DNA of 64,000 bases from Candidatus Sericytochromatia bacterium (GCA_035285865.1 JAYKHS010000028.1:151938-215937), one strand, 5' to 3'; positions 35,832-56,930 are shown, counted from the first letter of the stretch. Notes: generated by a model not told the origin, from the letters alone. Numbers and translations: made by a program.

Positions 35832-39173
<3,342 letters not shown>

Positions 39174-39190
39174 CCCACATGCCGAGCTTG

Positions 39191-39232
39191 GCGCCCCTTC
39201 CCGAATCCCGGGAGGGGGCGTCGTTGCTTGTT
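39191..39232 (+). terminator. Intrinsic terminator after rpoB
   Basis: GCGCCCCTTCCCG/CGGGAGGGGGCGT stem followed by CGTTGCTTGTT. Confidence 0.65.
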
Positions 39233-39295: not shown

Positions 39296-40429
39296 ATGCG
39301 GAATATTGTGCGTCGACTCGGTATGGGGGCGCTCAGCCTCGCTCTGGGTGCGTGCGCCTCGCCCGCCCTGACGCGTGCGCAGGCGCCAGCGGGCGGCGAT
39401 GTCTCACAGCTTGGCCAACTGCCGGGGTTCGATGTCACGCCCCAGGCAGGACTGGTCGGCAGGGTCGTCTGGCCTGATTCCGCACGTCGGTTGATGGCTA
39501 CCCAGGATGAGGTGGCCAGACGGGCCCGTGTCGGCCTCTTGCAGCCTTCTGGATCCGGTCAGTTCCGAACGGTCTACACCGCTCTGACAGACGAGTTTGG
39601 CAACTTCCAATTTCCTGCCGAGGTGACTGAAGGGGCCAATGGCATTCCGATCGATCCGTCGAAGGTTCTCATCCTGCAAGCAGAGAACGGCCTTAGCAAC
39701 AATGCGGCTGGTTCCAGTTCGGCTCGGTTGCGAACTTTCCTGACGCGTGTGGGGCAGGGTTCGACCGGATACCGCAGCACGTATGTCGATGATCAGAACT
39801 CCGGCATTGTCAACATCGATTTGAACACGACGGCGATGGCGGTCATCAAGTCGCTTCGGGACCAGTCACGCGTTCCTGCCGGCGACATCGTCGCTTTCAT
39901 CCAGTCGGTCACGCCCAAGACAAGCACGGCGAACCCTGCGGTGGTTGGCGCCAAGGAGTCGGTGCTGATCGTCCCCAACTCCGAGTTCCAGACGGTCTCG
40001 ACCTTGGTGGCCAATGTCCTTACGGGCAATCGTGATCCTCTGGCTGCCATCGAACTCAGGGATGCCGAGTCCAACCCACGGCGCTACCTCATCAAGTCCG
40101 AGTCCCAACCCGTCATCCAGGATGTGCGCTACATCGGGACCGGCGCCCCGCGCACCGTGTTCCAACCACTGGATCCCGTTCGGGTGTCCGGGGTCAATCT
40201 TCCGTACTACAGCCAAGGGGTGCTCGAGTTCCAAGGGAAGTCGGGGATCCTGACGGCACCTATCACGGGCGCGGATCTCGAGCAGAATACGTATCTGGAC
40301 ACGCAGGTGCCGCTGGACGTGGTTACGGGCATTGCCCAGTTGCGCTATGTGGCGATCAACGGAACCTTGGCCTATGCCACGATGTCGGTCGTGACGCCCC
40401 TCGGGGGATCGCTTACCCCCAGTCGTTGA
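39296..40429 (+). CDS. Lipoprotein, cluster family A (N-domain paralogous to 48510-50969) with IPT/TIG-like domain
   Basis: GGGAGG RBS, lipobox LGAC; P-I-DV...VRVSG-NL...QVP IPT-like segment. Confidence 0.75.
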   Translation: MRNIVRRLGMGALSLALGACASPALTRAQAPAGGDVSQLGQLPGFDVTPQAGLVGRVVWPDSARRLMATQDEVARRARVGLLQPSGSGQFRTVYTALTDEFGNFQFPAEVTEGANGIPIDPSKVLILQAENGLSNNAAGSSSARLRTFLTRVGQGSTGYRSTYVDDQNSGIVNIDLNTTAMAVIKSLRDQSRVPAGDIVAFIQSVTPKTSTANPAVVGAKESVLIVPNSEFQTVSTLVANVLTGNRDPLAAIELRDAESNPRRYLIKSESQPVIQDVRYIGTGAPRTVFQPLDPVRVSGVNLPYYSQGVLEFQGKSGILTAPITGADLEQNTYLDTQVPLDVVTGIAQLRYVAINGTLAYATMSVVTPLGGSLTPSR

Positions 40430-40559
40430 CCGACTTCAGCCAGGCGGCTTGGCTGGCGCGCCCGGTGCGTGACGTCGAGTGCTGGCTTGCGCGGCGCGAC
40501 GGGCCAGAACGGCCTGCTCTGCCGCCGGCCAGACGCCGCGGGCCGCAGGCCCAACCTCG

Positions 40560-41738
40560 TCAGTTGATGAAGGCGCTGGCCGTTGCCTGATTCAGGTCGG
40601 TGATGCCGAAGTAGACCATGTCGAGAAGACCTGACTCGGGGGGCTGCGCAGGAGCCGTGTAGACACCCTGCTGGTTGATGATGCCCAACTTGCGTCGGTT
40701 CTCGGGGTTGGTGCTGAAGAATTCCGGCTCGGCCTGCGGGCTTGCATTCACCTTGTAGGTGATCTTGGGATTCTGGGGCACGAACTCCGCGTTGTCGGTG
40801 TCGAAGCACTTGCCGACGAAGGTCTGGCTTCCACCGGCGTTGACATCCGCCGACGTCGGCGAGATCGAGAACCTGGAAATGCGCTTGAAGTCAGGCTGCA
40901 GGCTGGCGGTGGCACCGGCGTTCACGAGCTGGATCTTGCCCTTGGTCATGTCACTCTGGACTTGGAACTGCAGCGTCCCTCGGCCCGCATCCGTAAGGCC
41001 ATTCATGACATTCTTCGCCACGACGTTGCCTACCAGAATCTTGAAGGCGTCCGGCGCGTTGGGTTCGAGGATGTCTTCAACGTGCAGCGTGACGAAGAAC
41101 CCCGTGGGACCGGCATCAACAGAAGCCGTGGCGTCAGAACCCACTTGCTCGTAGACTCCCAGCAGGCGCGGTTCGCCGCTGCGGATGAAAGCCAGACGAA
41201 CTTTGTTTCCTGCACCGGGAACGAGGTTGATGTTGGCCGTCGCTTCGGCCTTGAGGTTTCCCATGCCATCTCGATCGTCATAGGCCTTGGCCGTGACCTT
41301 GGCGAAGCCGGTTGGCAAATCCTTGAAGGATGCGTTCGCGGGTGAGGAGGTGTCCGAGTAGAGGTTTATCGATGAGAGCGGGTAATCCACCCCAAACTGA
41401 CGATAGGTGCCGTAGTTAGCCTCGAAGGTCTGGTTGCCGACCGTAACGAAGACTTTGATGGACCCACTCTGGCGAACGGCCAAGGGGAGAGATTGAGCGG
41501 TCCTTGACGTTGGTCTCTGCACGAAGCGGATGGTCAGCTGGGCCGAACGTTCGAGGGAGCCCGGGGCCTGTTCGGTTGCTGGTTCCGTTTCCGGAACCAG
41601 CGCCATGCGCCCGAATGCTCCGGCATCCTGCGTTTCCGGGGCCTGAGCGGGTGGTGTAGCCAGCGTCGTGGCCGCACAGCCCGCAAGCAATGTCGACCAG
41701 AACGGCAATCCGATGCGCATCTGCTTGCCCTGCTTCAC
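40560..41738 (-). CDS. Lipoprotein, cluster family B (RxxQxLP domain + Ig-like domains)
   Basis: Lipobox LAGC; LTIRF..RTAQSLP; ISPTSADV-AG-SQTF and GIINQQGVYTAP (Big-type Ig). Confidence 0.75.
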   Translation of the reverse strand: MKQGKQMRIGLPFWSTLLAGCAATTLATPPAQAPETQDAGAFGRMALVPETEPATEQAPGSLERSAQLTIRFVQRPTSRTAQSLPLAVRQSGSIKVFVTVGNQTFEANYGTYRQFGVDYPLSSINLYSDTSSPANASFKDLPTGFAKVTAKAYDDRDGMGNLKAEATANINLVPGAGNKVRLAFIRSGEPRLLGVYEQVGSDATASVDAGPTGFFVTLHVEDILEPNAPDAFKILVGNVVAKNVMNGLTDAGRGTLQFQVQSDMTKGKIQLVNAGATASLQPDFKRISRFSISPTSADVNAGGSQTFVGKCFDTDNAEFVPQNPKITYKVNASPQAEPEFFSTNPENRRKLGIINQQGVYTAPAQPPESGLLDMVYFGITDLNQATASAFIN

Positions 41739-42361
41739 AGTTCAATCTCCACGGTCAAGCCTGCGGGCTCGGGTGTGGGTTCTGGTGTCGGTGCGAGTGT
41801 CGGTGCCGCAGTGGGCTGAGGGGTAGGATTACTTCCTGGATCCGGAGTAGACGAACCCCCACCACCGGATCCGGGCGTGCCGAACGGAATGGGTGTCGGC
41901 GTCGCGGTGGATCCACCGCCATCCGAGATGGGCGTGTTGAACGGCACGGGCGTTGCTGTTGCGGTGGAGCCGCCGCCACCCGAGATGGGCGTGTTGAACG
42001 GCACGGGCGTGGCTGTTGCGGTGGAGCCGCCGCCACCCGAGATGGGCGTGTTGAAAGGCACGGGCGTGGCTGTTGCGTTGGAGCCGCCGCCGCCCGATAT
42101 GGGCGTGCCGAAGGGCACTGGCGTAGGTGTCGCTGTGGTGCCGCCACCGGCACCATTGTCCCCGACCTTGCCGCCGACGCTGCCATTAGGATTGAAGGTT
42201 GCAGCCGAGCCAGTAGGGGTGGTTGAGGGCTTGGCCGTTGCCGAGGAACGCCTGAAGATTGGCTGCTGAGTAACTGTATCCTCGGCGCACGCCACGATCA
42301 TAAAGGTGGCCGCGACACAGGCGAGCGGTAGAATCCTGCGCCTGGACAGGGTCATCGTCAT
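41735..42361 (-). CDS. Pro/Thr/Gly-rich tandem-repeat lipoprotein (family C)
   Basis: Lipobox IVAC; repeat region; ends GLTVEIEL; GTGA overlap with the next gene. Confidence 0.75.
   Translation of the reverse strand: MTMTLSRRRILPLACVAATFMIVACAEDTVTQQPIFRRSSATAKPSTTPTGSAATFNPNGSVGGKVGDNGAGGGTTATPTPVPFGTPISGGGGSNATATPVPFNTPISGGGGSTATATPVPFNTPISGGGGSTATATPVPFNTPISDGGGSTATPTPIPFGTPGSGGGGSSTPDPGSNPTPQPTAAPTLAPTPEPTPEPAGLTVEIEL
41860..42150 (-). repeat. 57-bp (19-aa) tandem repeat, about 5 copies: TATATPVPFNTPISGGGGS
   Basis: ACGGCACGGGCGT at 41941 recurs at 41998 and, slightly varied, at 42055; diverged copies flank these. Confidence 0.9.
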
Positions 42362-42432
42362 CTTCTTCCCCCGAGTCGAGGTCCCATCGGTACCGTACCC
42401 CGACTCTCCGGCCTTTATGCCTTTCCTGTGGC

Positions 42433-44424
42433 TCAGGGCGCGATGACTGGCGAAACGGTGGCGGTCAGTGCGTGATGGAACGCGATCAGGGCATCCCACT
42501 CGCCGATTGCCGGGCCCGGTCCGTCCGGATCGGTCTTCATGTCCGGAGGTTGCCGCATTTCGGGTGCGATGTTGACTGCCTTGGTGGCGAATCGCTCGTA
42601 GAAATGCACCGCGGAGAACAGGTCCGGTTGGCTGCCATTGTGGAAGTAGGGAGCCGTCTGGGCCACATTGCGCAGGCCGGGAGTCTTGAAGGCCCCCTGA
42701 TCCGTTGCAAGGCCCGTTACGCCACGCCGGCCCGGATCCCCCGTGCCGAACTCGTCGAAGCCGATATTGTGGAACTTGTTGTCGGTGAACAAGGGGCCGT
42801 TGTGGCACGCTGCGCAGTTGGCCTTCCCCGTGAAGATGGCGAGGCCCCTGATCTGGTCTGCCGTCATCGCATTGTCGTCACCCAGCACCCAGCGATCGAA
42901 GGGTGCAGCCGTCGGATTCGGCGTGTTGTCCGGATTGCGACCTGCGGGTGAGACGTGGGCCCGGACATAGGCGGCAACGGCCTTTCGGGCCAGCAGGTCG
43001 TCGGGAGCGGACCCATAGACGGCTTGGAAGTCCTGGACATAGGCGTTGCTGACACGGAGTGTGGCGGTCACGGCATCGCCCGTGGTCGCAAACTCGCGAG
43101 GCCTCGTGAAGACCAGCAGATGCTGGGCCTCGAGTGAGTCGGCACTGCCGTCCCAGTTGAACAGGGTGTTGAACGCCGTATTCCAGATGGTGGGAACGTG
43201 ACGGGGCAGCTCCTTGCCGTCCTTGTCGATGCCCAGCTTGAGGCCGTCTCCCCCTCCCAGGGCATCCTGATGGCAGCTGGCGCAAGACATCTTGCCGTTC
43301 GATGAAAGGGTTGGATCGCCGAACAGACGCTCACCAAGCGCGAACTCCGCGCTCGGTACGGGAGTGATGGCCGGCATCGGCCCCATGTTCCACTGGGCGA
43401 GGTCCGCCCGTCCGAACGCGTGGACCTCGAAAGAGAGGCTGGCTTGCAGCTGGTCATTGCCAAGCCTGACCGCGATGGTTCCGGTGCTTTCGGGGAGCAC
43501 CAGACAACCGCCGCCCTGAACGAACAGTTCCTTCAATCTCAGGTTGGCCCCACAGTCCGCGCCGTTGCAGCGCCTCGACCAGTGAGGCGCCAGCGCCAGG
43601 GGGTCAAGTGGCTTGCCAGTGCTGTCGTAAGCCTTGCCCCGCAGCTCGATGATGCCGCCCGGAGCGTGGGCTGCCGTCTTCAGTACGTCGATGGAGATGG
43701 ATGCGATGCGCGTGATGACGGGTCGATAGGTGTTGGCCTGCCCGGCGACATCCACAGACAGGGTGCCGCTCGTGAAGTCTTCCGGGGGGGTCACGACCAA
43801 GGCGGTATCGCTGCGTGTCGCTATGGCTGAAGGTGGCAGGGGTTGTCCGTTCAGGCGCACTTCGACAGGCAGTCTGCTTGTCCAGCCGAAGCCCTGGCCG
43901 CTGATGCTCAGCTGCTGGCCAGGCAGCGGTTGCTTGGGGTCGACATTGAAAATCGTGACCGGAATGATGTTCTGCAGGGTCAGGACGGCCTGGGTGAGGG
44001 TGTTGGGTTGCACGACCACTTCGGTCGAACCCGTCGCGAGCAGGCCGCCCGAGGCGGACAGTGCCTCGGCCGAGATGGAGACCGTTCCGGGCTCAAGCGG
44101 CTGCAGGCTGCCCGTCGCCAGAGCTTCCGAGCCCTCTCGGACGAGCGTAAGCACCACAGGTGGCCCGCCGGAGCCGTCCCGGGCCTTGAGTGTCAGGGAG
44201 GCAATGTCCGCAGGAATGACCTGAGTCTGGCGTTGCGGCCAGCGCACTCCGACCCGAACCCCGCCTGTCCCCGCCGGAAGGGCCGTACCCGCAGGGTCGG
44301 AAACACGTACGGCCTCCAGGGTCGGGTTGCCGGATGCGGCGGGCAAGCGCGACACCTGACAACCCGTCAGGAGGCTCGAGCCCACCCATGCGACAAGGGT
44401 CAGGACCTGAAGGGCGTTTCTCAT
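42433..44424 (-). CDS. Lipoprotein: family B domain + IPT/TIG + di-haem cytochrome c peroxidase/MauG-family domain
   Basis: Lipobox LTGC; VRWPQRQTQVIP; LGERLFGDP-LS, CASCH, FNWDG, CAACH and FKTPGLRNVA-TAPYFHNG. Confidence 0.85.
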   Translation of the reverse strand: MRNALQVLTLVAWVGSSLLTGCQVSRLPAASGNPTLEAVRVSDPAGTALPAGTGGVRVGVRWPQRQTQVIPADIASLTLKARDGSGGPPVVLTLVREGSEALATGSLQPLEPGTVSISAEALSASGGLLATGSTEVVVQPNTLTQAVLTLQNIIPVTIFNVDPKQPLPGQQLSISGQGFGWTSRLPVEVRLNGQPLPPSAIATRSDTALVVTPPEDFTSGTLSVDVAGQANTYRPVITRIASISIDVLKTAAHAPGGIIELRGKAYDSTGKPLDPLALAPHWSRRCNGADCGANLRLKELFVQGGGCLVLPESTGTIAVRLGNDQLQASLSFEVHAFGRADLAQWNMGPMPAITPVPSAEFALGERLFGDPTLSSNGKMSCASCHQDALGGGDGLKLGIDKDGKELPRHVPTIWNTAFNTLFNWDGSADSLEAQHLLVFTRPREFATTGDAVTATLRVSNAYVQDFQAVYGSAPDDLLARKAVAAYVRAHVSPAGRNPDNTPNPTAAPFDRWVLGDDNAMTADQIRGLAIFTGKANCAACHNGPLFTDNKFHNIGFDEFGTGDPGRRGVTGLATDQGAFKTPGLRNVAQTAPYFHNGSQPDLFSAVHFYERFATKAVNIAPEMRQPPDMKTDPDGPGPAIGEWDALIAFHHALTATVSPVIAP

Positions 44425-44429
44425 CGCGC

Positions 44430-45050
44430 TTACTCCACCACCACGTCCATGGCGGCCTCATCGAGGATGGTCACGGGGATGGTCACGCGCATCCGGCCAT
44501 CGAGGCTCTCGACGATGATGCGGGCCGTGCCCGTCTCATCATCTGCCGCAAAGAGTCCGGGCTCGATCTCGTCCAACTCCACATCCTCGTCCACTTCGAC
44601 CGTGAAGCGCGCCCGGCTATCGATGGCATTGTCGTTCAAGCGGACCTCTGGCACCAATCGGACCATGTGCGGACGAAGCCCCGTGCTTCCCGAACCTGGA
44701 GCAACGCCAAGCTCGATGGCCGTGACACCGTCGTGGTAGGGGGCATCCTCGCCCGCGCCGAGGCGTACCTTGATGCCGGTGGAGAAGATGCCGTCGGGAT
44801 AGCGCTCCGTGTAGGGAGGGGTGGCCGTCGGGATCGGCAGTGCCGAGGACGTCGCGGCGGGCGTTGCGGTCGGTGCGCCAGACGGCTGGCCGAGGGGAGT
44901 CGGCGACGCGGCAGTGCTGCCTGGAGAGGGCAAGACAGTCGACGACGGGACTGGCGATAGCAGGGCTGACGGGACCAGACCTTGGCAGGCGGGCGTCATC
45001 ATGAGCGTCGCGGAGGCCACTCCGACGGCAAGGATGCGCCGTACTTGCAT
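44430..45050 (-). CDS. Pro/Ser/Thr-rich putative lipoprotein with C-terminal Ig-like domain (family C)
   Basis: GGAGG RBS, signal ending TPAC; ends AAMDVVVE. Confidence 0.65.
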   Translation of the reverse strand: MQVRRILAVGVASATLMMTPACQGLVPSALLSPVPSSTVLPSPGSTAASPTPLGQPSGAPTATPAATSSALPIPTATPPYTERYPDGIFSTGIKVRLGAGEDAPYHDGVTAIELGVAPGSGSTGLRPHMVRLVPEVRLNDNAIDSRARFTVEVDEDVELDEIEPGLFAADDETGTARIIVESLDGRMRVTIPVTILDEAAMDVVVE

Positions 45051-45192
45051 CAACCCACCTCCCGAATCAGGACGTGAGGGTTTCGGGTCGGCGGGCGACC
45101 CGGACAGCCCTCGTCTTGCGTGTTCGTCATCGTCACGCACCGCAATAACGACGAGTCAGGAGCCTCGGACGGCATGCGCTCCAGCGACGGCC

Positions 45193-46332
45193 TCATCGTG
45201 CCACCTCGATGTCCACCGTCGCCGTCAAGGGAGGAACGCCCACGACGAAGCCACCACGGGCCACCTTGAGGCATCCCTTGTAGGCGTCCACCACGGATAC
45301 CTGTTGCGTCCCCGCTCCCAAGGCGGTCAAACTGAAGAACTCGTCATCGCCACAATCCAGCTGCACGGGATCGGGATCGTAGCTTGGCAAGGCACCGGTC
45401 AGGCCGTTCGGCGGACGACCCACGGGCTGTCCGAAGGCGTCCAGGAAGGAGACGCTGAAGGTCGCGGTATCTTCGATGCCCATGTAGATGGACTGGGGAG
45501 AGACCGAGACAGAGGCAATGATCTCGATGGTTTCGGGAAGGGTCGCGGTCGAACCCTCGATGTTCAGGACCAGGGAGCCCCCCGTTGCATCCAAGGGTAC
45601 CCGGAACGAGAGCGTATTGTCCGAGGCCCTGCCAAGGGGCGGTTCGCCCGGACGGCTCGCCAGTGCCTCCCCTTCGATGACCTGATCGCCCAGCGTCAGA
45701 CTGTAGCTGGCGCCTCGGCTCGCCCCGAAGCCCGCGCCATCCAGTGTGACGACCTCTCCCCGAAACGCGGTCAGGGGATTGGCCCTCTTGAGCGTCAGCG
45801 GTTGATCGGGCGGGGCCAGGACCACGTGCGCCCGATGTCGGCCATTGGGCTGAAGCCGGACGCGGGTGCTGCCCGACACGACCAGTTCCTTGAGCACATT
45901 GCGGCCTTCGACCACCAAGGTCCAGTCACCGGGTTTGAGTGCGTAGAAGGTCGCTTGGCCGACGGAGCCCACGAGGCGCGGAATGGTGCGACGTTCGACG
46001 GGAACACCGGCTTCGTCTGGCACGACCCGGCATGTCAGTTCTCGAACACCCTCCGGGATGAGCTGGGCCGTTCTGGTCGCAGGCCACCGCACCGACAGCG
46101 TCAGGCTGGCGTTTGTGGTGGCCGGACGAGCTGCGTCAGCCGTTTCCGTGCCGCCGAGTGCGGTCTGGCCGTAGGCCTCGGGAGCAAGGGGGCTGTCGCC
46201 GGGCGTTTCACCTCCCGTGGGCGCGGTGCAGGCCGCCACGAACACGGCAAGGACCAGAGACAAAGCCGAGGCCGTAATCCTAGCCCGGTCGGGGCCCGCC
46301 GAAACGGGGTTGACCGGTGGATAGGGCGCCAA
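45193..46332 (-). CDS. Lipoprotein, family B + IPT/TIG + Ig-like domain
   Basis: Lipobox VAAC; VRWPATRTAQLIP; GEVVTLDGAGFG...LSFRVPLDATGG; ends TATVDIEVAR. Confidence 0.75.
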   Translation of the reverse strand: MAPYPPVNPVSAGPDRARITASALSLVLAVFVAACTAPTGGETPGDSPLAPEAYGQTALGGTETADAARPATTNASLTLSVRWPATRTAQLIPEGVRELTCRVVPDEAGVPVERRTIPRLVGSVGQATFYALKPGDWTLVVEGRNVLKELVVSGSTRVRLQPNGRHRAHVVLAPPDQPLTLKRANPLTAFRGEVVTLDGAGFGASRGASYSLTLGDQVIEGEALASRPGEPPLGRASDNTLSFRVPLDATGGSLVLNIEGSTATLPETIEIIASVSVSPQSIYMGIEDTATFSVSFLDAFGQPVGRPPNGLTGALPSYDPDPVQLDCGDDEFFSLTALGAGTQQVSVVDAYKGCLKVARGGFVVGVPPLTATVDIEVAR

Positions 46333-46346
46333 GGATGAAACCCTCC

Positions 46347-47693
46347 TCAGGGGATGATGGATACCGTGGCCGAAGCCTTGATATTCGAGAAGCCGAACTC
46401 GACGACCTCGCTGCTGCCCGTGGAAACCCCGATGAATTTGCTGGTGTAGGGGGTACCTGGTGCAACCGTGGCACCCGGTGATGGCACGACCGTGGGGGTC
46501 TGGACCTCGAAAGGCGAGATCAGGTAACCGCCCGAGATCGGGTCAATGTAGCTCTTGCCGTAGACCGGCGCCCCCGAGTCGATTTGCTCCCAGCCAAGAT
46601 CGTTGCTCTTGAACTGGAAGACCTTCTCGTAGGCCTGGGCGGCGTACCTTTCCACATTGATGGAGTCCGAGCCGACGCCCATGCTGAAGACGGGAGCGCC
46701 TGGCTTGCCGATGTAGGGTGCAAGATCGATCTCGTCGCTGCCGCTGAACGCCTTGCCGACGAACACGACATCGAAGCTCGAACTGGCCGCGAGAGAGGTG
46801 GTCGCCTGGGGGGTGGCGGACTTCGAGAGCGAGACCGAGGTTGGCGTGATCGTCACTCGGTCGACGCGTGTCGCCGTGTTGGGGCTGCACTTGGTGACAC
46901 CGTTGATGGCCACGCAGAGGGGTTCGTTTCTTCCGAGGTCACCGGGGACCTTGACCGACAACAAGCCTTTGCCGTCCCCAAGCGCCAAGAAGCTACGATT
47001 GGCCGCGCCAATCGGGATACCCGCGTTGTCATTGCCGAAGAAGACCGACATCCCGTTCGCGGCGTCGTCACCCACCCCGTCCAGGCGCGCATTGATGGTG
47101 TCGCCAAGGGCCACCAGTTCAGCGCTCAGCCTGCCGACCTCGTGCACGACGATCGGGATGAGATTCAGCGAGACCTTGGTGTTGACGTTCGGTGCCACCG
47201 TGAACGTGGTGGAGGCGGAGGCCACGACGATGGAGTCCGAGGATACGGCCATGTTGACGGTGTCGTAGCGCGAGTAGGCCACGGCCGACATCGTGGCGGC
47301 ACCGATGGCCACTTGGTCGAAGCTGATCGACGCAGTCGATTCTCCTGCTTTGCGCACGGCGACCTTGGTCAGCGAGACGCTGGGAGAGCCTGACTCGAGC
47401 GTGAAGGCCAGAGCGTTGGTGATGTCCGGAATGACTTGAGTGGTCCGCTCAGGCCAACGAATCTCGAAGGCGATTCGCCCCGAGCGTACCGCTCCGTCCG
47501 AAGGCTGTCCCGTCAGCGTCGGCAACGCACCGCCGCTCGCGCCTTCGGTGGCGGACGTCAGTCGCTGGGCGCTTTCCGGCGACGCGACGCAGGCCCCTAC
47601 GAAAGCCGTGACGGCCAGAGACAAAGCACCGGACAAAACGTGGGCGGGGCGCAAGCGCTTGGGGGTGCGCGACATCAGGTGGTTGTCTCCCAT
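46347..47693 (-). CDS. Lipoprotein, family B + Ig-like domains
   Basis: Lipobox VGAC; IRWPERTTQVIP; ends ASATVSIIP. An alternative ATG lies 18 nt downstream. Confidence 0.75.
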   Translation of the reverse strand: MGDNHLMSRTPKRLRPAHVLSGALSLAVTAFVGACVASPESAQRLTSATEGASGGALPTLTGQPSDGAVRSGRIAFEIRWPERTTQVIPDITNALAFTLESGSPSVSLTKVAVRKAGESTASISFDQVAIGAATMSAVAYSRYDTVNMAVSSDSIVVASASTTFTVAPNVNTKVSLNLIPIVVHEVGRLSAELVALGDTINARLDGVGDDAANGMSVFFGNDNAGIPIGAANRSFLALGDGKGLLSVKVPGDLGRNEPLCVAINGVTKCSPNTATRVDRVTITPTSVSLSKSATPQATTSLAASSSFDVVFVGKAFSGSDEIDLAPYIGKPGAPVFSMGVGSDSINVERYAAQAYEKVFQFKSNDLGWEQIDSGAPVYGKSYIDPISGGYLISPFEVQTPTVVPSPGATVAPGTPYTSKFIGVSTGSSEVVEFGFSNIKASATVSIIP

Positions 47694-48458
47694 CTACCGG
47701 ACCTCGACCGTCACCCGGCCTTCGCCGGAGACTTCGACCGCGAAGCTACGCGTGATGAAACTCTGGACGCCGCCCACCGTGTCGGAAGGCGTCAGCGACT
47801 GCAGCACGATGCTGGTCTTGCCGGGCTTCTTGCCGACCAGGCGCCAGTACTTGCTGGTCCCGCCAAGCGGCAGGACCGCGGCCAACTCGGCTACCGTGAC
47901 GATGCTCGTGTCGTTCGAGACAATCGTCAGATCCTTGTCCAGACGGCCAGGATCGGTGTAGGTGACAAAGGCTTCGATATCCAGTTCCCAACCTTGCTGG
48001 ATGGGCTCGTTGCCTGCCCCCGGATCGACCGATAGAGTGGCGGGTTCCGGCAAGGGCTCGGATTTGCCCTTCGCGGAAACACGAATCGCCGTGGCGAGCA
48101 CCTGACCCACCGGTATGGTCGTCGGTGCAGCGGTCGGGGTCGGTGCAAAGGTCGGCCTGGGGGAAGGCGTCGGCGTCGGAGCCAAGGTCGGAAGCAGACC
48201 GCCGGGGGTGGGGGTCCGGGTGGTCCCGGTGGTGCTGCCAGGAGCGGGTGTCGGCGTTGCCCCGCCGCCTACGTTGCCCCCGGGACCACCCGGAGCCGGG
48301 GTCGGTGTAGGCGTTGCCCTGACGGTACCGGTTCTCGGTGCTGTAGTCGGTTCGTCCGTCGTGGTGGCCACGACGGATGTATCGGCACAGGCCGCCAGCA
48401 GCACCAAGCCCACGGCGGCGTGTCGCATGGTCCGTCGGTATGCGGGATGTCGATGCAT
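47694..48458 (-). CDS. Pro/Thr-rich lipoprotein with C-terminal Ig-like domain (family C)
   Basis: Lipobox LAAC; PTPTP linker; S-DTSIVTV...GKKPGKT-I (Big_2-like); ends GRVTVEVR. Confidence 0.75.
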   Translation of the reverse strand: MHRHPAYRRTMRHAAVGLVLLAACADTSVVATTTDEPTTAPRTGTVRATPTPTPAPGGPGGNVGGGATPTPAPGSTTGTTRTPTPGGLLPTLAPTPTPSPRPTFAPTPTAAPTTIPVGQVLATAIRVSAKGKSEPLPEPATLSVDPGAGNEPIQQGWELDIEAFVTYTDPGRLDKDLTIVSNDTSIVTVAELAAVLPLGGTSKYWRLVGKKPGKTSIVLQSLTPSDTVGGVQSFITRSFAVEVSGEGRVTVEVR

Positions 48459-48509
48459 GGAGTGAGGGCAAGTCCTGTGCTAGGGGGGGCGCGAGGCCCC
48501 CCCGGTGGG

Positions 48510-50969
48510 TCAGTTCATCGAAGTGTATTGGACGGAGTTGGTGTTGCCACACCAGCCACCGATCTTATACACGTACCGGCCGCAGACGACCGTGGTGCCG
48601 CCGCCGCCGAAGTTGACGTTGGCATTGCCGTAATAGGGCCAGCAACCTCCGGCATTCTGCGGGGCGTTGCCATCAGCCGTGAGGGTCGAACGACGGACCT
48701 CGGTGCCACCGCACCAGGGACCGAGCATGTAGAGGTACTGTCCTGTGGCGAAGGCGCAAGCGCCGTAGTTGCCGCAGAATGCACCACCGCCGGTTTGGTT
48801 CCAGCCGCCATTGGGCGTACCGTCTGCGTTCAGGTTCAGGTACGACGTGTAGTTGTAGGTCAACCACCAGAGGCGGCCGCCCACATATAGCATCGGGGTT
48901 TCGGCGTTGCCCGTGTAGGGTCCGGTCTGCCAGCCGCCCGAGTACGTGTCGTTGGCCGGGTTGTAGGTCTTGTAGAAGAACGGCGTGCCGCAGTAGCCGG
49001 CCATGCCATACACGCCGCGGCCGCTGCCGACGGAGCTCAGTTCTGACGCGCACCAGTTGATGTCGTCCCGGCTGTTGCCGTTCCACTGGCCCCAGCCGGA
49101 GCCCTGGTTGCCCTCGATGTCGAAGGAAAGGTAGCCAGCAGCACTGCTGCCTTCGTCCTGGAAGATGTAAAACCGCTTGCCGACCCAGTTGTCGAAGGTG
49201 CCGGCCATGTCCTGCTGCCGCAGCGCCCAGCTGTAGTTGCCGGCGAACTGCAAGCCTGATGCAGGGCCGCCGTCGTTGTTCAGGTCGAAGTAGTAAACCG
49301 TGTTCTGTTCGGCCGGGATGATGTAGAACCGCTTGCCCGACCAGAAGCCGGCGTTCATGTTGCCGCCGCCGTGGCCGCCGGACACGTAGGCCCAGTTCGA
49401 GTTGTTCAGGTTGCCGTCGATGGTGGCCACCGTGGAGTCGGCCTGGGCACCCGACGCGATCTGGACGGATACGGCCGTGGCGTTGCTGGCACCGATTCCG
49501 GGTGGCACCACGACACGGATGGTGGTGTTGGTCCAGTACTGGATCATGGCTGCCTTGTTGCCGATCTTGACCGTTCCCAAGGCCGTACCGAACTTGTCCC
49601 CCTTGATCTGGACGTAGCCGTGCGAGCCTACCGACCGCGGGTAGATCTCGGAGATGGTGACCGAGTTGTCGATCATCGTGAGCGGGAAGGGGTCGGAAAG
49701 GCCATTGGGGTTGTATAGGTACACCGGTCCCGAAGTTGCGTCGGCCGGAACCTTGAGATACAAGGCGCGGGATCCGCTGATGGTCGTGTCGTAGGTCGAG
49801 ACCGACGCCGTGGCCAACTTGCCGCTGCTGAGCGGGAAGGCCTTGCCCGTCGTCTTGTCGAGCATCGTGAAGTAGACTTCGTTCTTCGAGATGTTGGCAC
49901 CGGTAAAGAATCCATAGCCTTCGACCTTGCAGTACTCGTCGAACTTGACGGGCAGGCCGGTGCCCAATGGGTACCGCACGATGTTGGTGATGTTGACGTT
50001 GATGCCGGGCGGAACCTGGAAGTCGGTCTCTGCTGCCTTGCCCATCGACTCGACGCGCAGCTTGCCCGAGGCGGCGGTGGACGGCACGAGCACCGTCAGC
50101 TCATTGGACTTGATGCTGACGGGCGTCTGCGGCGGTGCCGTGGAGCCGCCGAAGCGAACCACGGTTCCGCCCGGGTAGGACGCGAAGCCCGTGCCCTTGA
50201 TGGTGACGAGCGTGCCCGGGCCTCCCGAGGTGGGAGAGATGCCCGAGATCGTGACGGCGCCGGAGGTCGGGAGGTTGCCAATGGGTTCCATGCCAGCCAG
50301 CAAGTAGTTCTTGACGGCGGTCGCGATGTCCTGGATCTCGGCGGCGGCGATGGCGCCGACGCTGGCGGCATTCAGCTGCACGCTCGTCGACGTCACGGCA
50401 ACCTTGCCGATGACATCCGCGACGTTGATGCGGCCTTGGCCGACCAGAATGGCCAGGGCGGTGGTGAGTTGGTTGATGACGATGCCGCCACCCACGGTAC
50501 CGTTGCTGATGGACTTCCAACCGCCCGCGGTGGCATCCCACTGAACGATGGTGCGCATGCGCAGGATGGGCGAGCCGGGTGCCGAACTGACCGCCTTGGC
50601 GGCCTCAAGGTAGTAGTAGCGGCCGTCCGGAGGCGCCGAGCCGCCCTGGAAGGTCAGGGTGAAGCCGCCCGAGTTGTCCGACAGGCCCGAGCCGACGGGT
50701 TGATTGGTGGACAGATCGATCAACGAGATGGTGGCTTGGCTCGCGATCGACGCAAGCTGGGCATCCGTCAGTTGCTGGTTCTGGCTGGTGAGCTGGCCCG
50801 GGTCACGGACCGACCCGTACAAGACGTATCGCGCCGGATCCCAAGCGTTCGTGGCGGCAGGCTGGGTCGGATTGTCCGGCGCAACCCCGCCGACGCGCCC
50901 CGGCAGGGACGAACAGCCCACGGCCAACACGATGGCCGACGAAAGACCCCACCGCTTCCACGACTTCAT
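48510..50969 (-). CDS. Large lipoprotein: family A N-domain, ~3 IPT/TIG domains, C-terminal Cys/Trp-rich Kelch-like beta-propeller
   Basis: AAGG RBS, lipobox AVGC; ISPTSGGPGT-VTI-GTGF (IPT); six G-x-(F/Y)-Y blades. This is the 3' part of the listed 2121-aa ORF. Confidence 0.8.
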   Translation of the reverse strand: MKSWKRWGLSSAIVLAVGCSSLPGRVGGVAPDNPTQPAATNAWDPARYVLYGSVRDPGQLTSQNQQLTDAQLASIASQATISLIDLSTNQPVGSGLSDNSGGFTLTFQGGSAPPDGRYYYLEAAKAVSSAPGSPILRMRTIVQWDATAGGWKSISNGTVGGGIVINQLTTALAILVGQGRINVADVIGKVAVTSTSVQLNAASVGAIAAAEIQDIATAVKNYLLAGMEPIGNLPTSGAVTISGISPTSGGPGTLVTIKGTGFASYPGGTVVRFGGSTAPPQTPVSIKSNELTVLVPSTAASGKLRVESMGKAAETDFQVPPGINVNITNIVRYPLGTGLPVKFDEYCKVEGYGFFTGANISKNEVYFTMLDKTTGKAFPLSSGKLATASVSTYDTTISGSRALYLKVPADATSGPVYLYNPNGLSDPFPLTMIDNSVTISEIYPRSVGSHGYVQIKGDKFGTALGTVKIGNKAAMIQYWTNTTIRVVVPPGIGASNATAVSVQIASGAQADSTVATIDGNLNNSNWAYVSGGHGGGNMNAGFWSGKRFYIIPAEQNTVYYFDLNNDGGPASGLQFAGNYSWALRQQDMAGTFDNWVGKRFYIFQDEGSSAAGYLSFDIEGNQGSGWGQWNGNSRDDINWCASELSSVGSGRGVYGMAGYCGTPFFYKTYNPANDTYSGGWQTGPYTGNAETPMLYVGGRLWWLTYNYTSYLNLNADGTPNGGWNQTGGGAFCGNYGACAFATGQYLYMLGPWCGGTEVRRSTLTADGNAPQNAGGCWPYYGNANVNFGGGGTTVVCGRYVYKIGGWCGNTNSVQYTSMN

Positions 50970-51095: not shown

Positions 51096-51124
51096 TTGAC
51101 CCCCTGTCCGGGGCGGCCTACAAT
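51096..51124 (+). promoter_or_regulatory. sigma70-type promoter of rpoC
   Basis: TTGACC-17 bp-TACAAT. Confidence 0.7.
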
Positions 51125-51266: not shown

Positions 51267-54200
51267 ATGAGTTCCCGGTTTGACTACATCAAGGTCGGTA
51301 TCGCCTCCCCCGAGCGGATCCTCAGTTGGTCCCGGGGTGAAGTCACCAAGCCGGAGACCATCAACTACCGCACGCTGAAGCCTGAGAAGGACGGTCTCTT
51401 CTGCGAGAAGATCTTTGGCCCCGCGAAGGATTGGGAGTGTCACTGCGGCAAATACAAGCGTGTCCGCCACAAGGGCATCATCTGCGAGCGGTGCGGTGTC
51501 GAGGTCACGGACTCCAAGGTCCGTCGCTATCGTATGGGTCACATCCAGCTCGCGGCCCCCGTGGTGCATATCTGGTACCTGAAGGGCATCCCGTCCTATC
51601 TGTCCCAGCTTCTCGACATTCCCCTGAAGAACCTCGAGAACGTCGTCTACTTCAACGAGTACATCGTCCTGGATCCCGGCACCGGAGCCATCGATGGCAA
51701 GGCCCTCGAGTATGGTCAGACCATCAACGAAGATCAGTACGAAGAGTTCGAGTCCAAGGAGGCTGTCTTCACGGCCAAGATGGGCGCCGAGGCCATCAAG
51801 GAGTTGCTGGACCGTCTGGATCTCCCGGCGGAGCGTGAGAAGCTTCAGGTCGATGCGGAGTCGACCAGCGAGACCAAGCGCCTGAAGGCCATCAAGCGCC
51901 TCCGGGTCGTGGATGCGTTCCTGTCGGCCGGCGCCCGTCCGGCGTGGATGGTCCTGGATGTCATTCCTGTCATTCCGCCCGACCTGCGTCCGATGGTCCA
52001 GCTTGACGGTGGCCGTTTCGCCACGTCCGACCTGAATGACCTCTACCGCCGCGTCATTAACCGAAATAATCGTCTGCGTCGTCTCAAGGACATGGGTGCG
52101 CCGGACATCATCGTCCGCAACGAGAAGCGCATGCTCCAGGAGGCGGTCGACGCCCTGATCGACAACGGTCGTCGTGGCCGCGCCGTCGTGGGCCCTAGCC
52201 AGCGTGCGCTCAAGAGTCTTTCGGACATCATCGAGGGCAAGCAGGGCCGTTTCCGCCAGAACCTGCTGGGCAAGCGCGTCGATTACTCGGGCCGCTCCGT
52301 CATCGTCGTCGGGCCGAACCTGAAGCTGCACCAGTGCGGCTTGCCCAAGGAGATGGCGCTCGAGCTCTTCAAGCCCTTCGTCATGAACAAGCTCGTCGAG
52401 CGAGGCATCGTCCAGAACATCAAGTCTGCCAAGAAGAAGATCGAGCGTGGCGAGACCATCGTCTGGGACATCCTCGAAGAGGTGATCCGCAGTCACCCCG
52501 TGTTGTTGAACCGCGCCCCGACCCTGCATCGTCTGGGTATCCAGGCTTTCGAGCCCCTGCTGGTCGAGGGCCGCGCCATCCAGATTCATCCCTTGGTCTG
52601 CACGGCGTTCAATGCCGACTTCGACGGTGACCAGATGGCCGTCCATGTGCCCTTGTCGGTCGAGGCCCAGACCGAGGCGCGCCTGCTGATGCTCGCCTCG
52701 AACAACGTCCTCTCCCCTGCGACGGGCAAGCCCATCATCACGCCGACCCAGGACATGGTTCTCGGTTGCTTCTATCTGACGGTTGACAATCCCACTGCCG
52801 ATCGCGGACGCGGCCTGCGGTTCAAGAACTTCTCCGACGTGCTTTCGGCTTATGCCGAGGGCCGGGACAAGAGCGATGCCCACGCCGTCCTCGACCTGCA
52901 TGCCAAGGTCGTCGTGCGTTTCGAGGGTGCTCGTGAGGAGGACCTCACGGATGCGGATGAAGTGGCCGCTACCGTTTACACCGAGCCTGAAGCCCGTGCG
53001 TGGCTCGCCAAGGGCCTGCGCGAAGGACGCGTGATGGTCACGACTGCGGGGCGCATCATCCTGAATGAGGTGCTTCCGGAGGAGTTCCCCTTCCTGAACA
53101 AGGTCATCGACAAGAAGGGCCTCGAGCGGATTATCCAGCGGGCTTTCTCGCAGGAGGGGCTCGGCTCCGCCCGCGCCGCACATCTGGCCAACGAACTCAA
53201 GGGTCTCGGCTTCAAGTACGCGACCCGGGCGGGCGTCTCCATCGCCATTGACGATCTCATGATTCCCAAGGCCAAGAAGGAGATGCTCGAGGCGGCTGAG
53301 AAGGACATCGAGAACGCGCAACGCGACTACCTGGACGGTCGCATCACCGAGGTCGAGCGCTACACCAAGGTCATCGATACCTGGGCCCGTGTCACCGAGC
53401 AGCTCAAGGGCAAGGTCAAGGAAGAGTACGACCGCCTCAACTCGGTCTACATGATGGCGTTCTCGGGCGCTCGAGGGAACATCACCCAGGTCAGCCAGCT
53501 GGTCTGCATGCGCGGACTGATGGCGGATCCCTCGGGTCGCATCATCGACTTGCCCATCAAGTCGAACTTCCGTGAAGGCCTGAACCAGACCGAATACATC
53601 ATCTCCTCGTACGGAGCCCGAAAGGGACTGGTCGACACGGCACTGCGCACGGCCGACTCCGGTTACCTCACCCGCCGTCTCGCGGACGTGGCTCAGGACG
53701 TCATCGTTCGGGACGAGGACTGTGGGACGACCCGCGGTCTCGACCTGCGGGCCATCGTCGAGGGCGAGCGCGTGATCGTGCCGCTCGCCGATCGTGTGGT
53801 GGGCCGTGTCGTGGCATCCGACGCACTGGATGCCGAGGGACGCGTGGTCTTCCCGCGCGGTCACCTCCTCGGTTTCGAGGATGCGGATCGGGTTGCTGCC
53901 GAAGCTTTCACCAGCATCCAGATCCGGTCCCCGCTGACCTGCGAGAGCCCTCGGGGCGTCTGCCGTCACTGCTATGGTTGGTCTTTGACGAACCATCAGT
54001 TGGTGGACATCGGCGAGGCCGTGGGCATCATCGCGGCGCAGTCCATCGGTGAACCCGGCACCCAGCTCACGATGCGTACGTTCCATACCGGTGGCGTCTT
54101 CACGGCCGAAGCCACGACGCTTGTCGAGCGGGCGGCCAAGGCCGGCAAGGTGCGCATCGCCGAGCCCTTCGCCACGCGTGAGTTCCGCACGAGGCACGGC

Positions 54201-56930
54201 AAGAGGGTGGACGTGACGGAGCGCGAGGGCCTGATCGAGATCGTCCAGGGCAACAAGGTGCTGGACAAGGTCACGGTGGGTGTGAATTTCGTCATCGACG
54301 TGAAGGATGGCGATGTCGTCGCTGCCGGCGCGCAGTTGGCGCATTCCGACCTCGAGATGCGCGGTGCTTCCCGCAAGTCGATGGAGCAGGCCACCAAGGA
54401 GATTGCGGCCGACGTGGCCGGTATTCTCTGCTTCGAGAACTTTGCCGTCGAGGAAAAGACGGATCGTCAGGGCAATACGACCCGGACGGCCGTGCCGCTG
54501 CCCGGAAAGTCGGGCGAGGCCACGGTCTGGGTCGTCCAGGGCGATGTCTTCTCGCTGCCTACCGGAGCCCACGTCAAGGTCTCCAAGGGCCAGGCCGTCA
54601 AGAAGGACGATGTCATTGCCGAGACCGTGCAGGTCAGCCAGTTGGGCGGTTCGCTCCGTCTCGGTGCCGACATCGAGCTCGAGAAATCTAAGGCAGGCAC
54701 CGTGATCCGCAAGGGTCGCGATGTCTCGGTCATCACGGCTTCTCTGGTCTGCGAGGGGGCAACCTCGGCCGAGGGCACCAAGCTGCGGATTGATGACGAG
54801 GCGGGCCAGCGGATCTTCTCGCTCAAGTGCGGGGATGGTTCGCGTGTGGAGTCCGACCAGGTCATCGCCGAGCACGTCGATGATGAGAACCTCGTCCAGT
54901 CTGCCGGTGAGATTCGGTACGACGGCGAGCCCGTGTTCCTGGACAAGGACCGGCGCACGATCGGCAAGCAGGTTAAGCTGCTCTTCATTCCCGAGGAGCG
55001 CATGACCGTCAACAAGGACATCACGTTGCTCGTCGACGGCATTCGTAACGGCTGCGAGGTCTCTGCCGGGACCGAGGTCGTACGGGATGTCGAAGTCAAG
55101 ACCAACGGTGTGCTCGAGGTGGTCGAGGACAACAACATCATCAAGGAGGTCTATGTCTTCCCGGGTGATCGTTACGAGCTTCCTGCTGGCGTCGAGATTC
55201 TCGTCGAGGATGGCCAGCGGATCGCTACCGGCACGAACCTCGCCGATGGGGTCGTGGCGCGTCAGGGCGGGGTCGTTCGTCGCATCCAGCTGACGGATGG
55301 CGAGGAAGAGACCGGCACAGTGGTGGTCGTTCGCAAGACCGTCGAGCGGGTCGTCAAGGCGGCTCAGCGAGGCATCCCCTTCGCGCCGTCCAGCGAGGAC
55401 ATCAGTCTCAAGTACGAGACTCGTCTCCAGGTCAAGGATGGCGAGCGGGTCAAGGCTGGCGCCGCCCTCGCCAAGACCGAGGTCGCGCTTCGCCTGACCG
55501 GTACGCTGGCGCGTCTGACGGGTCGCGTCGAGATGCCCGAGGCCCCACAGGGAGAGGATGGCGAGGTCGCAGCGGAGCGCGTGCTCTCCATCACGATTCT
55601 CGAGACCCTCACGCTACGTCGGGATCATCCCTCGGTGGCCCTTCGTGCGGGTCACGTGGATCAGGAGGTCGTGACTTACCTGATGCTGGAGGAAGGCTCT
55701 CGTGTGGAACCGGGCCAGGTCGTTGTCCGCTCCGAGATTCGGTCGCACGCCGCCGGCATCGTGGAAGAGCCCCGGCGTCCCGATGATGCTCATGCTTTCA
55801 TCTCTCGCCTTGCCCTGATCACGACCGAACAGGAAATCTCCCAGACGGTTTCCCGCGCGGATGCTGCCGTCGCTGACGGTCAGTACGTCATCGAGGGCAC
55901 GGATCTCGGGGGCGGGGTCGAGGCCACGGTGACGGGCCGAGTTCGTTTCGATGGGGATCGGGTCGTCGTCCGCAAGGGCCGCCCTTATCTCATCTCGCAG
56001 GGTACCCAGCTGCTGGCCAACGACGGCGACATGGTGATGATGGGCGAGCCGCTCGCCATGCTCATCTACAACCGCCAGAAGACCGGTGACATCATCCAGG
56101 GTCTGCCGCGCGTCGAGGAGCTTCTCGAGGCGCGCAAACCCAAGGACAACGCCTTGCTTGCACCGCATGCCGGTGTCATCGAGCTCGACAAGGACCCGGA
56201 GGAAGCGGCCGAGGTTCGCATCGTTGCCGATCGGCCGCTGGTCGAAGGCGAGCCGATGGAAGAAGTGCCCCAGCCCAAGTCCCGGAGCAAGGACAAGTCG
56301 GCTCAGGGCATCACGACCCTCAAAGTCCCGGCTTCGGTCCGCCTGATCGTGGCAAGGGGCGAGCGGGTGGAGCGTGGTCAGCCCCTTACGGACGGTCCGG
56401 TCAGCCCGAAGGACGTCCTGTCCGCGACGGGCTCGGTCGAGGAGACGCAGCGCTTCCTCGTCGACGAAGTCCAGATGGTGTACCGCTCGCAGGGCGTCGA
56501 GATTGCCGACAAGCATCTCGAGGTCATCGTCAGGCAGATGACGCGGAAGGTGAAGGTCGACGAGACTCAGGCTTCCAAGTTGCTGCCCGGTGAGATGGTG
56601 GATTCGCTTGACGCCGAGCGCATCAATCACGAACTCGTCTCCGAGGGCAAGACGCCTGCCAAGCTTAGCCCCGAGCTTCTGGGCATCACCAAGGCCTCGC
56701 TCAACACGGATTCGTTCGTGTCGGCAGCCTCGTTCCAGGAGACGACTCGAGTCCTGACCGAGGCAGCGATTGCTGGCAAGAAGGACTTCCTCCACGGCCT
56801 CAAGGAGAACGTGGTCATCGGCCGTCTGATCCCGGCTGGCACGGGTTACTTCGACCCGGGCGAGGAGCCTGAACCGGTTGGTGCCGAAGCGGCGATCATC
56901 GGGGGAATGCCCGTGGAGCTTCGCCTCTAG
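51267..56930 (+). CDS. rpoC: RNA polymerase beta' subunit, unsplit, with large SI3 insertion
   Basis: Zn ribbon [27 protein letters not shown] and [10 protein letters not shown]. Confidence 0.99.

Follow-up and report, generated by a model that had tools for sequence, protein, structure and literature searches.

The rpoB-rpoC gene pair is almost universally adjacent, and the question raised by the locus described here is what nine consecutive genes for predicted lipoproteins are doing between its two members. The locus lies in a stretch of 64,000 nucleotides (the window; G000:C28:151938-215937) from a 2.82-Mb metagenome-assembled genome (MAG; 32 contigs, 82.7% complete) of Candidatus Sericytochromatia, an uncultured, non-photosynthetic lineage related to cyanobacteria. 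The nine cluster genes are called G1 to G9 throughout, and three-digit handles such as G000 (the source genome), G002 and G003 denote genomes. An initial annotation of the window had placed one gene of the cluster on the plus strand and eight, co-oriented, on the minus strand, and had likened the whole to a type V pilus. All nine open reading frames (ORFs) are present at the coordinates listed below, rpoB and rpoC were confirmed by Pfam, and the orientation was borne out (G1 on the plus strand; G2 to G9 on the minus strand). The answer that we consider plausible, though by no means assured, is that tethers are coupled to cargo by strand donation, in a manner that would resemble type V pili and would yield pairs or short chains.

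Terminal tails and the first strands of neighboring domains

The nine genes, and the segments of them that carry the argument, are listed here by position in the window. Ranks and tail-against-strand scores are those of the comparisons that follow, made with a position-specific scoring matrix (PSSM); HMM denotes a hidden Markov model, AF2 an AlphaFold2 model and pLDDT its predicted local distance difference test score.

39296..40429, plus strand: G1, A-type predicted lipoprotein, 377 aa (lipobox rule; A-module HMM, E 4.8e-23), with no Pfam or NCBIfam family
40560..41738, minus strand: G2, B-type predicted lipoprotein, 392 aa, with a divergent B N-domain (B HMM, E 1.3e-28; lipobox rule)
41517..41543, minus strand: G2 B-domain first strand, residues 66-74 (read from the translation and alignment)
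41735..42361, minus strand: G3, putative minimal tether composed of a lipobox, a Pro/Thr/Gly-rich low-complexity sequence of ~170 residues and a beta-strand-like terminal tail (translation, lipobox rule, orthologue comparison)
41738..41764, minus strand: G3 C-terminal tail, last 9 residues (rank 134 of 25,818 ORF ends, strand PSSM from other genomes)
42433..44424, minus strand: G4, B-type predicted lipoprotein, 663 aa, with a B N-domain, a TIG-like domain and a di-haem CCP/MauG-family domain (PF03150, E 2.3e-40; B HMM, E 2.3e-41)
44242..44265, minus strand: G4 B-domain first strand, residues 54-61 (alignment)
44430..45050, minus strand: G5, putative tether with a lipobox (Pro at -2), a Pro/Thr/Ser-rich linker, a domain of ~120 residues and a tail (relaxed lipobox rule; jackhmmer)
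44433..44456, minus strand: G5 C-terminal tail, last 8 residues (weak match to the G4 strand, score 4; rank 2836)
45193..46332, minus strand: G6, B-type predicted lipoprotein, 379 aa counted from a TTG codon, with a true start that may be downstream (B alignment, B HMM, lipobox rule)
46087..46110, minus strand: G6 B-domain first strand, residues 75-82 (matches the G7 tail with score 17, the top of the G7 row)
46347..47693, minus strand: G7, B-type predicted lipoprotein, 448 aa, with a B N-domain, a TIG-like domain, a poorly modelled C-terminal part and a tail (AF2 model; B HMM, E 1.3e-43)
46350..46376, minus strand: G7 C-terminal tail, last 9 residues (orthologue comparison, tail/strand scoring)
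47457..47480, minus strand: G7 B-domain first strand, residues 72-79, with W-P next and then a loop of low confidence that contains Arg83 (AF2 strand 71-79; loop 82-86 with pLDDT below 50)
47694..48458, minus strand: G8, putative tether with a lipobox, a Pro/Thr/Gly-rich linker of ~90 residues, a domain of ~135 residues without a family and a tail (translation, lipobox rule, jackhmmer)
47697..47720, minus strand: G8 C-terminal tail, last 8 residues (score 26 against the G7 strand, top of row and column; rank 42 of 25,818)
48510..50969, minus strand: G9, A-type predicted lipoprotein, 819 aa, with an A module, two TIG stretches and a region of repeats, rich in Gly/Trp/Tyr, in which a Kelch-like propeller is possible (TIG, E 1.2e-13; A HMM, E 1.5e-91)

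Spacing within the cluster is tight: G8 and G7 abut, G5 and G4 are separated by 5 nucleotides, and G3 and G2 overlap by 4. Very long antisense frames in the region (for example 48510-54875 on the minus strand) were discarded as artefacts of high GC content.

The N-terminal domain of the B-type proteins opens with a strand of the pattern G-x-h-x-h-x-h-R, which is followed by W-P and then by a long loop, and the ORFs that end on the same strand just upstream of B genes usually close in a look-alike tail, G-x-h-x-h-x-h-[Q/E]-stop, of which R and D variants also occur. By position, the consensus of the strands is G / x / L,V / x / V,L,F / x / I,V / R and that of the tails is G / x / L,V,A / x / V / x / V,I / Q,E, in a register in which the stop of the tail falls where the strand's arginine precedes W-P. 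When a PSSM built from 19 non-redundant first strands of other genomes was run on the 25,818 ORF ends of the source genome, the ORFs upstream of its nine B genes were found at ranks 1, 2, 13, 42 (G8), 57, 79, 134 (G3), 2486 (G7) and 2836 (G5). Five more arrangements of a tail followed by a B gene were located in the same genome (C28:2763-6640, C17:6539-10392, C17:20911-24582, C17:53751-55681 and C30:10173-11986), and the tails at C28:2763-4457 and C17:6539-8149 are the ones that hold ranks 1 and 2 among all ORF ends.

A wider sample comprised 87 B genes in loci of this and related genomes, which fall into 51 clusters at 50% identity, 48 of them with an upstream ORF. Scored over their last 8 residues with a PSSM made from first strands only, in leave-one-out fashion and with a mean of 2.4 candidate ORFs per gene, upstream tails exceeded the 99th percentile of the background (the same 25,818 ORF ends) in 35 of the 48 B loci and the 99.9th in 17. 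Among the 30 donors whose N-terminus falls inside the locus, 23 carry a lipobox, and the first 80 mature residues of the donors are 65% Pro, Thr, Ser, Ala and Gly. On the acceptor side, a lipobox lies ahead of the first strand in 86 of the 87 B genes sampled (by the sequence rule described below), and an arginine or lysine follows W-P within 7 residues in all 39 B domains compared (24 of 24 when non-redundant). The motif W-P-x-R-x-x-Q-x-I-P is strongly conserved after the first strand across the class (in G7, residues 80-89, window 47427-47456); a site for a protease, a turn and a binding site are among its conceivable roles.

The simplest of the putative donors is G3, whose orthologues in three genomes vary in the sequence and length of the linker and retain the signal peptide and the last dozen residues. 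Because G3 consists of a lipobox, a low-complexity linker and a tail, the tail is the only part of it that might adopt structure. An origin of these pairs by the splitting of a gene, in which the tail would be a cargo strand left behind on the upstream gene, was set aside because the cargo keeps its own strand. Taken at the level of the family, a grammar of strand donation, as read from sequence, is present and statistically solid, and the order of a tail followed by a B domain recurs throughout the class. No paper that describes pairs of this kind in Sericytochromatia or cyanobacteria came up in a limited search of the literature.

The preference of a tail for the strand of its own neighbor is a separate matter, and pair-specific matching in these alignments is weak but present. 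Across 24 loci the cognate mean was 8.08 vs 6.67 for non-cognate combinations, a marginal result (11,694 of 200,000 permutations reach the cognate excess); across 48 loci the means were 8.58 and 6.85 (standard deviation 7.07), and the observed sum was reached in 618 of 200,000 permutations, or in 134 of 200,000 when a shift of one residue was allowed. These permutation figures overstate independence, because the loci are related to each other, and the cognate tail is top-ranked for 6-7 of the 48 strands. Inside the cluster, the G8 tail scores 26 on the G7 strand (the top of both row and column) and the G7 tail scores 17 on the G6 strand (the top of its row), whereas tails set against the strand of their own protein score -2 (G7), 10 (G6), -2 (G4) and 5 (G2). 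Neither A-type protein, G1 or G9, showed a tail or strand relation with any neighbor, and partners were not found for the tails of G9, G6, G4 and G2 or for the A-module first strands of G1 and G9.

Lipoprotein signals, families and folds

The lipobox-like cysteines described in the initial annotation (LGAC, LAGC, IVAC, LTGC, TPAC, VAAC, VGAC, LAAC and AVGC) are present in all nine genes. Under a PROSITE-like rule, which asks for a start codon, a basic residue, six residues without D, E, R or K, a lipobox, and a Cys at position 15-40, eight of the nine proteins pass in the strict form, and G5, with its Pro at -2, passes only when the rule is relaxed, which brings the count to nine of nine. The cysteine is conserved among the orthologues in G002 and G003, the two close relatives of the same genus (MAGs of Ca. 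Tanganyikabacteria bacterium and Ca. Sericytochromatia bacterium). Genome-wide, 309 of 4,420 coding-like ORFs of at least 100 aa pass the strict rule (~7%, with a denominator that contains spurious frames), and because so few do, nine such ORFs in succession are not random; the proper null for the run is nevertheless tandem duplication, not chance. Outside the cluster, the window encodes two Peptidase_S8 subtilases with lipobox-like signals (29058-30341 and 33086-34408, both on the plus strand; E 4e-50 and 3e-60), which sit 5.5 and 1.4 kb upstream of rpoB, and a further lipoprotein-like ORF upstream of rpoB at 27658-29061 (plus strand). The subtilases are possible processing proteases for lipoprotein clusters.

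The nine proteins had been sorted into groups A (G1 and G9), B (G2, G4, G6 and G7) and C (G3, G5 and G8). HMMs built from the A and B domains recovered both groups as homologous families; group C did not survive as one, and its members share an architecture only. The N-domains of group B align with one another and contain invariant R10, R14, Q17 and G62 (11 sequences from three genomes), and an all-against-all blastp comparison of the cluster proteins, into which G3 was entered in shortened form, links the B group only. Group A is a family by the criterion of an HMM of 17 A-modules, which matches G1 at E 4.8e-23 and G9 at E 1.5e-91; a comparison of the orthologue profiles of G1 and G9 by hhalign (E 0.0097, with a probability of 4%) was superseded by that model. 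The lack of homology in group C follows from its parts: the domain of ~120 residues in G5 is a family of its own, found by jackhmmer upstream of B genes in other genera (L029, L030, L031, L032, L036, L039, L041 and C17b), the G8 domain was matched in the same kind of search by its orthologues only, and G3 has no domain.

Pfam and NCBIfam together name only two of the nine proteins, G4 and G9 (G3 was scanned in shortened form against Pfam, and in full against NCBIfam only). The di-haem peroxidase that had been noticed was confirmed in G4, where PF03150 covers residues 359-517 with 139.1 bits against a gathering cut-off of 25.6 (E 2.3e-40) and the translation contains two CxxCH motifs. The top NCBIfam models for G4 are MauG and MbnH, with every equivalog score under its cut-off; for MauG proper (TIGR03791) the score is 191.9 bits against an equivalog cut-off of 443.85. 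The IPT/TIG domains of the initial annotation hold for G9 (PF01833, 51.3 bits over two stretches, cut-off 20.9) and fall below the cut-off in G4 (18.8 bits). Its Kelch-like propeller fared less well: no Kelch family of Pfam matches any of the nine proteins at E <= 0.1, and the feature scores of 0.83-0.85 that connect the C-terminal third of G9 to Kelch clusters in the ESM Atlas are a lead only. No FimA/Mfa family of Pfam was matched by the nine proteins at the same threshold, and, as had been stated, no usher, sortase, secretin or transporter was found among them by Pfam or NCBIfam. Neighbors of G6 in the ESM Atlas are Big_2/TIG stacks, and a protein homologue search with G7 returned four matches, namely G7 itself and three proteins at 74-76% identity.

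An AF2 model of G7 reached a mean pLDDT of 61, with values (in blocks of 10 residues) of ~70-87 in the N-domain and ~79-92 in the TIG-like domain and a poor C-terminal part; its first strand comprises residues 71-79, and pLDDT falls below 50 in the loop at 82-86. Modelled alone, the B domain reached a pLDDT of 77.3 and displayed six clear strands. A Foldseek search with this model gave no match at E <= 0.001, and FN3 monobodies made up most of the list of weaker matches, in which E values of 0.03-0.09 were obtained for the type V pilins 3liu, 3r4r and 5nf4. A VIA comparison with 48,161 chains placed a type III secretion system pilotin first (Z 7.5) and returned the type V pilins 5nf4 (Mfa3; Z 7.1, root-mean-square deviation 5.8, 111 residues aligned), 3up6 (6.8), 5cag (6.4) and 3r4r (6.3); these pilin scores of 6.3-7.1 are middling and tied with those of FN3 and C2 domains, and several of the entries are Bacteroides 'adhesin' pilin-like proteins. 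Foldseek with the whole G7 model found generic tandem Ig/FN3 chains only, which was uninformative on the first domain, and a B-domain profile run against PDB sequences gave partial matches only, at E 1.5e-4 or weaker. Because the structural matches are generic and the pilins are tied among them, the B domain is best described as a predicted beta-sandwich of the Ig/FN3-like kind, with a possible kinship to pilins.

Distribution and the divided rpoB-rpoC pair

The features that flank the cluster in the window are as follows.

35832..39173, plus strand: rpoB, left flank (Pfam RNA_pol_Rpb2 domains 1-7)
39189..39223, plus strand: terminator-like hairpin directly after rpoB, with a 15-bp stem and a T-rich tail (consensus scan only)
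51096..51124, plus strand: promoter-like site upstream of rpoC, 10 of 12 matches (consensus scan only)
51267..56930, plus strand: rpoC, right flank, in one frame of 1887 aa (Pfam RNA_pol_Rpb1 domains 1-5)

The whole block of nine genes is syntenic between rpoB and rpoC in G002 and G003, across which the cluster proteins are 47-90% identical and rpoB and rpoC 82-97% identical. The end of rpoB and the start of rpoC were both matched in 29 relatives: the two genes lie 73-206 nucleotides apart on one contig in 22 of them, and ~12 kb apart in G002 and G003, as in the window (39174-51266). For the remainder, G008 has partial matches a short distance apart on a single contig, the two genes occupy separate contigs, both with long flanks, in G004 and G005, and the matches fall at contig edges in G007 and G018, so that the spacing is not readable there. 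The flanks of rpoB and rpoC in G004 contain A-type genes, a tether and three B-peroxidase genes, and the insertion is for that reason probably shared by a second genus; G006, from the same family, has an ordinary adjacent pair. Each half of the divided pair appears to be equipped with a signal of its own in the consensus scan, a terminator-like hairpin for rpoB and a promoter-like site for rpoC. The rpoC gene of photosynthetic cyanobacteria is split into two genes, which is not the case here: all Rpb1 domains lie in the single frame of 1887 aa, and most relatives with a full-length frame have open frames of ~1,800-1,960 aa.

Both modules of the cluster are widespread in the lineage. The A module of the G9 type was matched in 25 of 41 genomes, including the source genome, with up to 27 matches per genome, and was not found with that query in the eight genomes of one family (f4; 0 of 8). 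The B domain occurs in 40 of 41 genomes at E <= 0.001 and, in a phylum-wide sample at E <= 1e-5, in 37 of 46 relatives of the same class and in none of the 104 genomes of other classes that were searched. The pair of a tether followed by a B-peroxidase gene recurs in two further genera, represented by G004 and G005. The order of a G9-like A-type gene, a tether and a B-peroxidase gene likewise recurs in other genera (L057 and L058, at G004:C8 and C39, and L061, at G005:C81), a hint that the propeller protein and the peroxidase may be functionally connected. The B domain is also met in a different context, in short lipoproteins of 147-160 aa (L043, L045 and L053, in G008, G022 and G016) whose upstream ORFs end in an aromatic Phe, a terminal residue that is typical of outer-membrane beta-barrel proteins.

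Proposed strand donation, its rivals and known systems

If the grammar of tails and strands is functional, G3, G5 and G8 would be the likely membrane tethers and G2, G4 and G7, each encoded next, their partners. The C-terminal strand of a tether would take the place of the look-alike first strand in the Ig-like N-domain of its neighbor, and a hand-over of the same kind, by way of the tail of G7, would likely link G7 to G6. After export, a protease would cut or open the loop behind the first strand, perhaps at its conserved basic residue; the short strand through which the cargo itself is lipid-anchored would then leave, and the neighbor's tail would fill the vacated slot. The cargo (two Ig-stack proteins and a di-haem peroxidase) would in consequence hang from a long flexible tether, or a short chain G8-G7-G6 would form, and the A-type proteins G1 and G9 would stand apart from this as independent lipoproteins, members of a family that has undergone great expansion in the lineage. 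A surface location for the system is not supported; a c-type haem enzyme is among the cargo.

Several observations weigh against such a mechanism. The cargo proteins keep their own lipid anchors, so that a second tether looks redundant unless the cargo is cleaved; the basic residue at the end of the strand is not invariant (Ala, Gln and Glu occur), and no protease was identified. In the AF2 model of G7 the tail (residues 439-445) is paired as a hairpin with the preceding strand (428-434), which means that each tail might be no more than the final strand of the domain to which it belongs. No upstream tail passed in 13 of the 48 B loci, and pair specificity is small (1.7 score units against a spread of 7). 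Within the cluster itself, the G5 tail scores only 4 on the G4 strand, which is fitted better by the tail of G8 (18), and the G3 tail scores only 1 on the G2 strand in the family register, although by eye it fits G2's atypical strand two residues off that register. A naive genome-wide comparison, in which 250 lipoprotein candidates had their first 130 mature residues scanned with upstream tails at every offset, gave no excess (cognate mean 12.42 vs 12.06 in the null), and scores of at least 20 were reached by 7 of 250 cognate and 54 of 1,250 null combinations; the signal of the tails thus emerges only when the register of the B domain is held fixed.

Much of this would be expected if the nine proteins were independent, monomeric envelope lipoproteins, that is, a tandemly duplicated and fast-evolving set of Ig stacks with different heads (peroxidase, propeller), in which each tail is the last strand of its own fold or a stabilizing hairpin and the likeness of tail to strand reflects the chemistry of edge strands or shared ancestry. 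Seven of the nine proteins have no family, their folds are generic tandem Ig/FN3, the A and B modules have expanded to dozens of copies per genome in the lineage, in the way usual for surface or envelope repertoires, the cluster genes diverge faster than their flanks (47-90% vs 82-97% identity), and the weak matching of pairs and the modelled hairpin of G7 point the same way. What makes this account somewhat unlikely is that a matrix of first strands should place the neighbors of B genes at ranks 1 and 2 among 25,818 ORF ends, and above background in 35 of 48 loci across genomes, when generic strand chemistry would not single out the adjacent gene; that G3 has no fold of its own for its tail to complete; and that tether and cargo genes abut or overlap.

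The same enrichment might arise if tails and first strands were both read by a third party, for instance a factor for export or sorting, a chaperone in the periplasm or a protease that processes them. A shared recognition motif of this sort would account for a likeness that is mostly one of class, with non-cognate combinations nearly equal to cognate ones (6.85 vs 8.58), and both the conserved R-W-P-x-R-x-x-Q-x-I-P adjoining the strand and the two lipoprotein-type subtilases encoded 1.4 and 5.5 kb upstream of rpoB would fit it. A general sorting signal should not, however, be limited to genes that lie directly upstream of B genes, a pair-specific excess does exist, small as it is (reached by 134-618 of 200,000 permutations), and no such factor was identified, all of which leaves a third-party reader unlikely. 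A true polymeric pilus of the type V kind, with a head-to-tail stalk and anchor and tip subunits, is what the initial annotation had proposed, and it is the least probable of these alternatives. A chain G8 -> G7 -> G6 can be read from the tails, the own tail of G6 scores 10 on its own strand, and the structural comparisons of the B domain have type V pilins (5nf4 Mfa3, 3up6, 3r4r, 3liu and 5cag) in their tied top group; against this, own-tail scores of -2 (G7), 10 (G6), -2 (G4) and 5 (G2) stand beside 26 and 17 for the best cognate pairs, one 'subunit' is an enzyme, no FimA/Mfa family is matched, and the pilin matches are middling (Z 6.3-7.1) and tied with FN3 and C2 domains. The original analogy gains support from the grammar of tail and strand, a feature that the initial annotation did not list; a filament (by reason of the poor own-tail scores) and membership in the pilin families (for want of a FimA/Mfa match, and with pilins only tied among generic fold matches) are not supported.

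Returning to the coupling of tether and cargo, the locus may represent, as a possibility to be entertained with some reserve, a means by which Sericytochromatia couple lipoproteins through strand exchange in the style of type V pili, using parts that are unrelated or very remotely related. The strand of a disordered tether would then displace the lipid-anchored first strand of a modular 'socket' domain, and enzymes or binding proteins would be handed from a short anchor to a long leash or built into ordered chains that follow gene order. The type V pili of Bacteroidia are regarded as the one setting in which lipoproteins exchange strands with the help of a protease (PMC13655056). The present system, if real, would be the first outside that class and the first to serve the display of cargo rather than filaments, and a second lineage that tethers enzymes or binding modules by the same logic would make the principle more general. 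It would also provide a natural, genetically encoded plug-and-socket pair (~8 residues and a domain of ~100) and a view onto the cell envelope of the non-photosynthetic sister groups of cyanobacteria, in a locus that is unusual for the second reason that it splits the rpoB-rpoC pair.

Among known systems, the di-haem CCP/MauG enzymes share with G4 the PF03150 domain and two CxxCH motifs; in G4 the enzyme is preceded, within the one polypeptide, by a lipobox, a B domain and a TIG-like domain, and does not reach the MauG equivalog cut-off. Chaperone-usher pili depend on a chaperone and an usher; their acceptor is one strand short from the outset, and the strand that it receives is N-terminal in the donor. 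The likeness to these pili is that a strand from one subunit completes, or here is proposed to enter, the beta-sandwich of the next; the acceptor of the cluster differs in having its own strand, the donor strand is C-terminal, and no chaperone or usher family was found among the nine proteins.

Type V pili provide the closest parallel. According to one account (PMC13655056), they are 'unique to' the class Bacteroidia; their subunits are lipoprotein precursors with an N-terminal anchor strand after the lipidated Cys; gingipain cuts an Arg site in the loop behind the anchor strand, and a C-terminal donor strand finally takes the place of the acceptor's anchor strand; and the genes lie in one operon, with an uncleaved anchor pilin at the base of the pilus and no usher. 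The pilin fold consists of two transthyretin-like beta-sandwich domains, one N-terminal and the other C-terminal. The cluster parallels this scheme in its lipobox-bearing precursors (by the sequence rule), in a donor tail that resembles the anchor strand, in a basic residue of the loop, in an anchor-like partner, in the lack of an usher and in the grouping of the genes into one operon. A search of the genome for the gingipain family PF01364 gave no match, but control genomes were equally silent, which makes the result uninformative. The differences are considerable: the host belongs to Sericytochromatia, not Bacteroidia; the acceptor, rather than a two-domain pilin, is one domain of ~100 residues carried by multi-domain proteins of varied make-up, and has no FimA/Mfa match; long disordered tethers act as the donors, and the cargo includes an enzyme; and a self-polymerizing stalk subunit is not apparent in the cluster from own-tail scores of -2, 10, -2 and 5, which are a sequence proxy. 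Because donor and acceptor are different proteins in a fixed gene order, the exchange would be heterotypic, and pairs or short chains, not a homopolymer, are to be expected. In the cluster it is at the level of sequence that the tail of one protein mimics the first strand of the next; the replacement of one strand by the other is known from type V pili.

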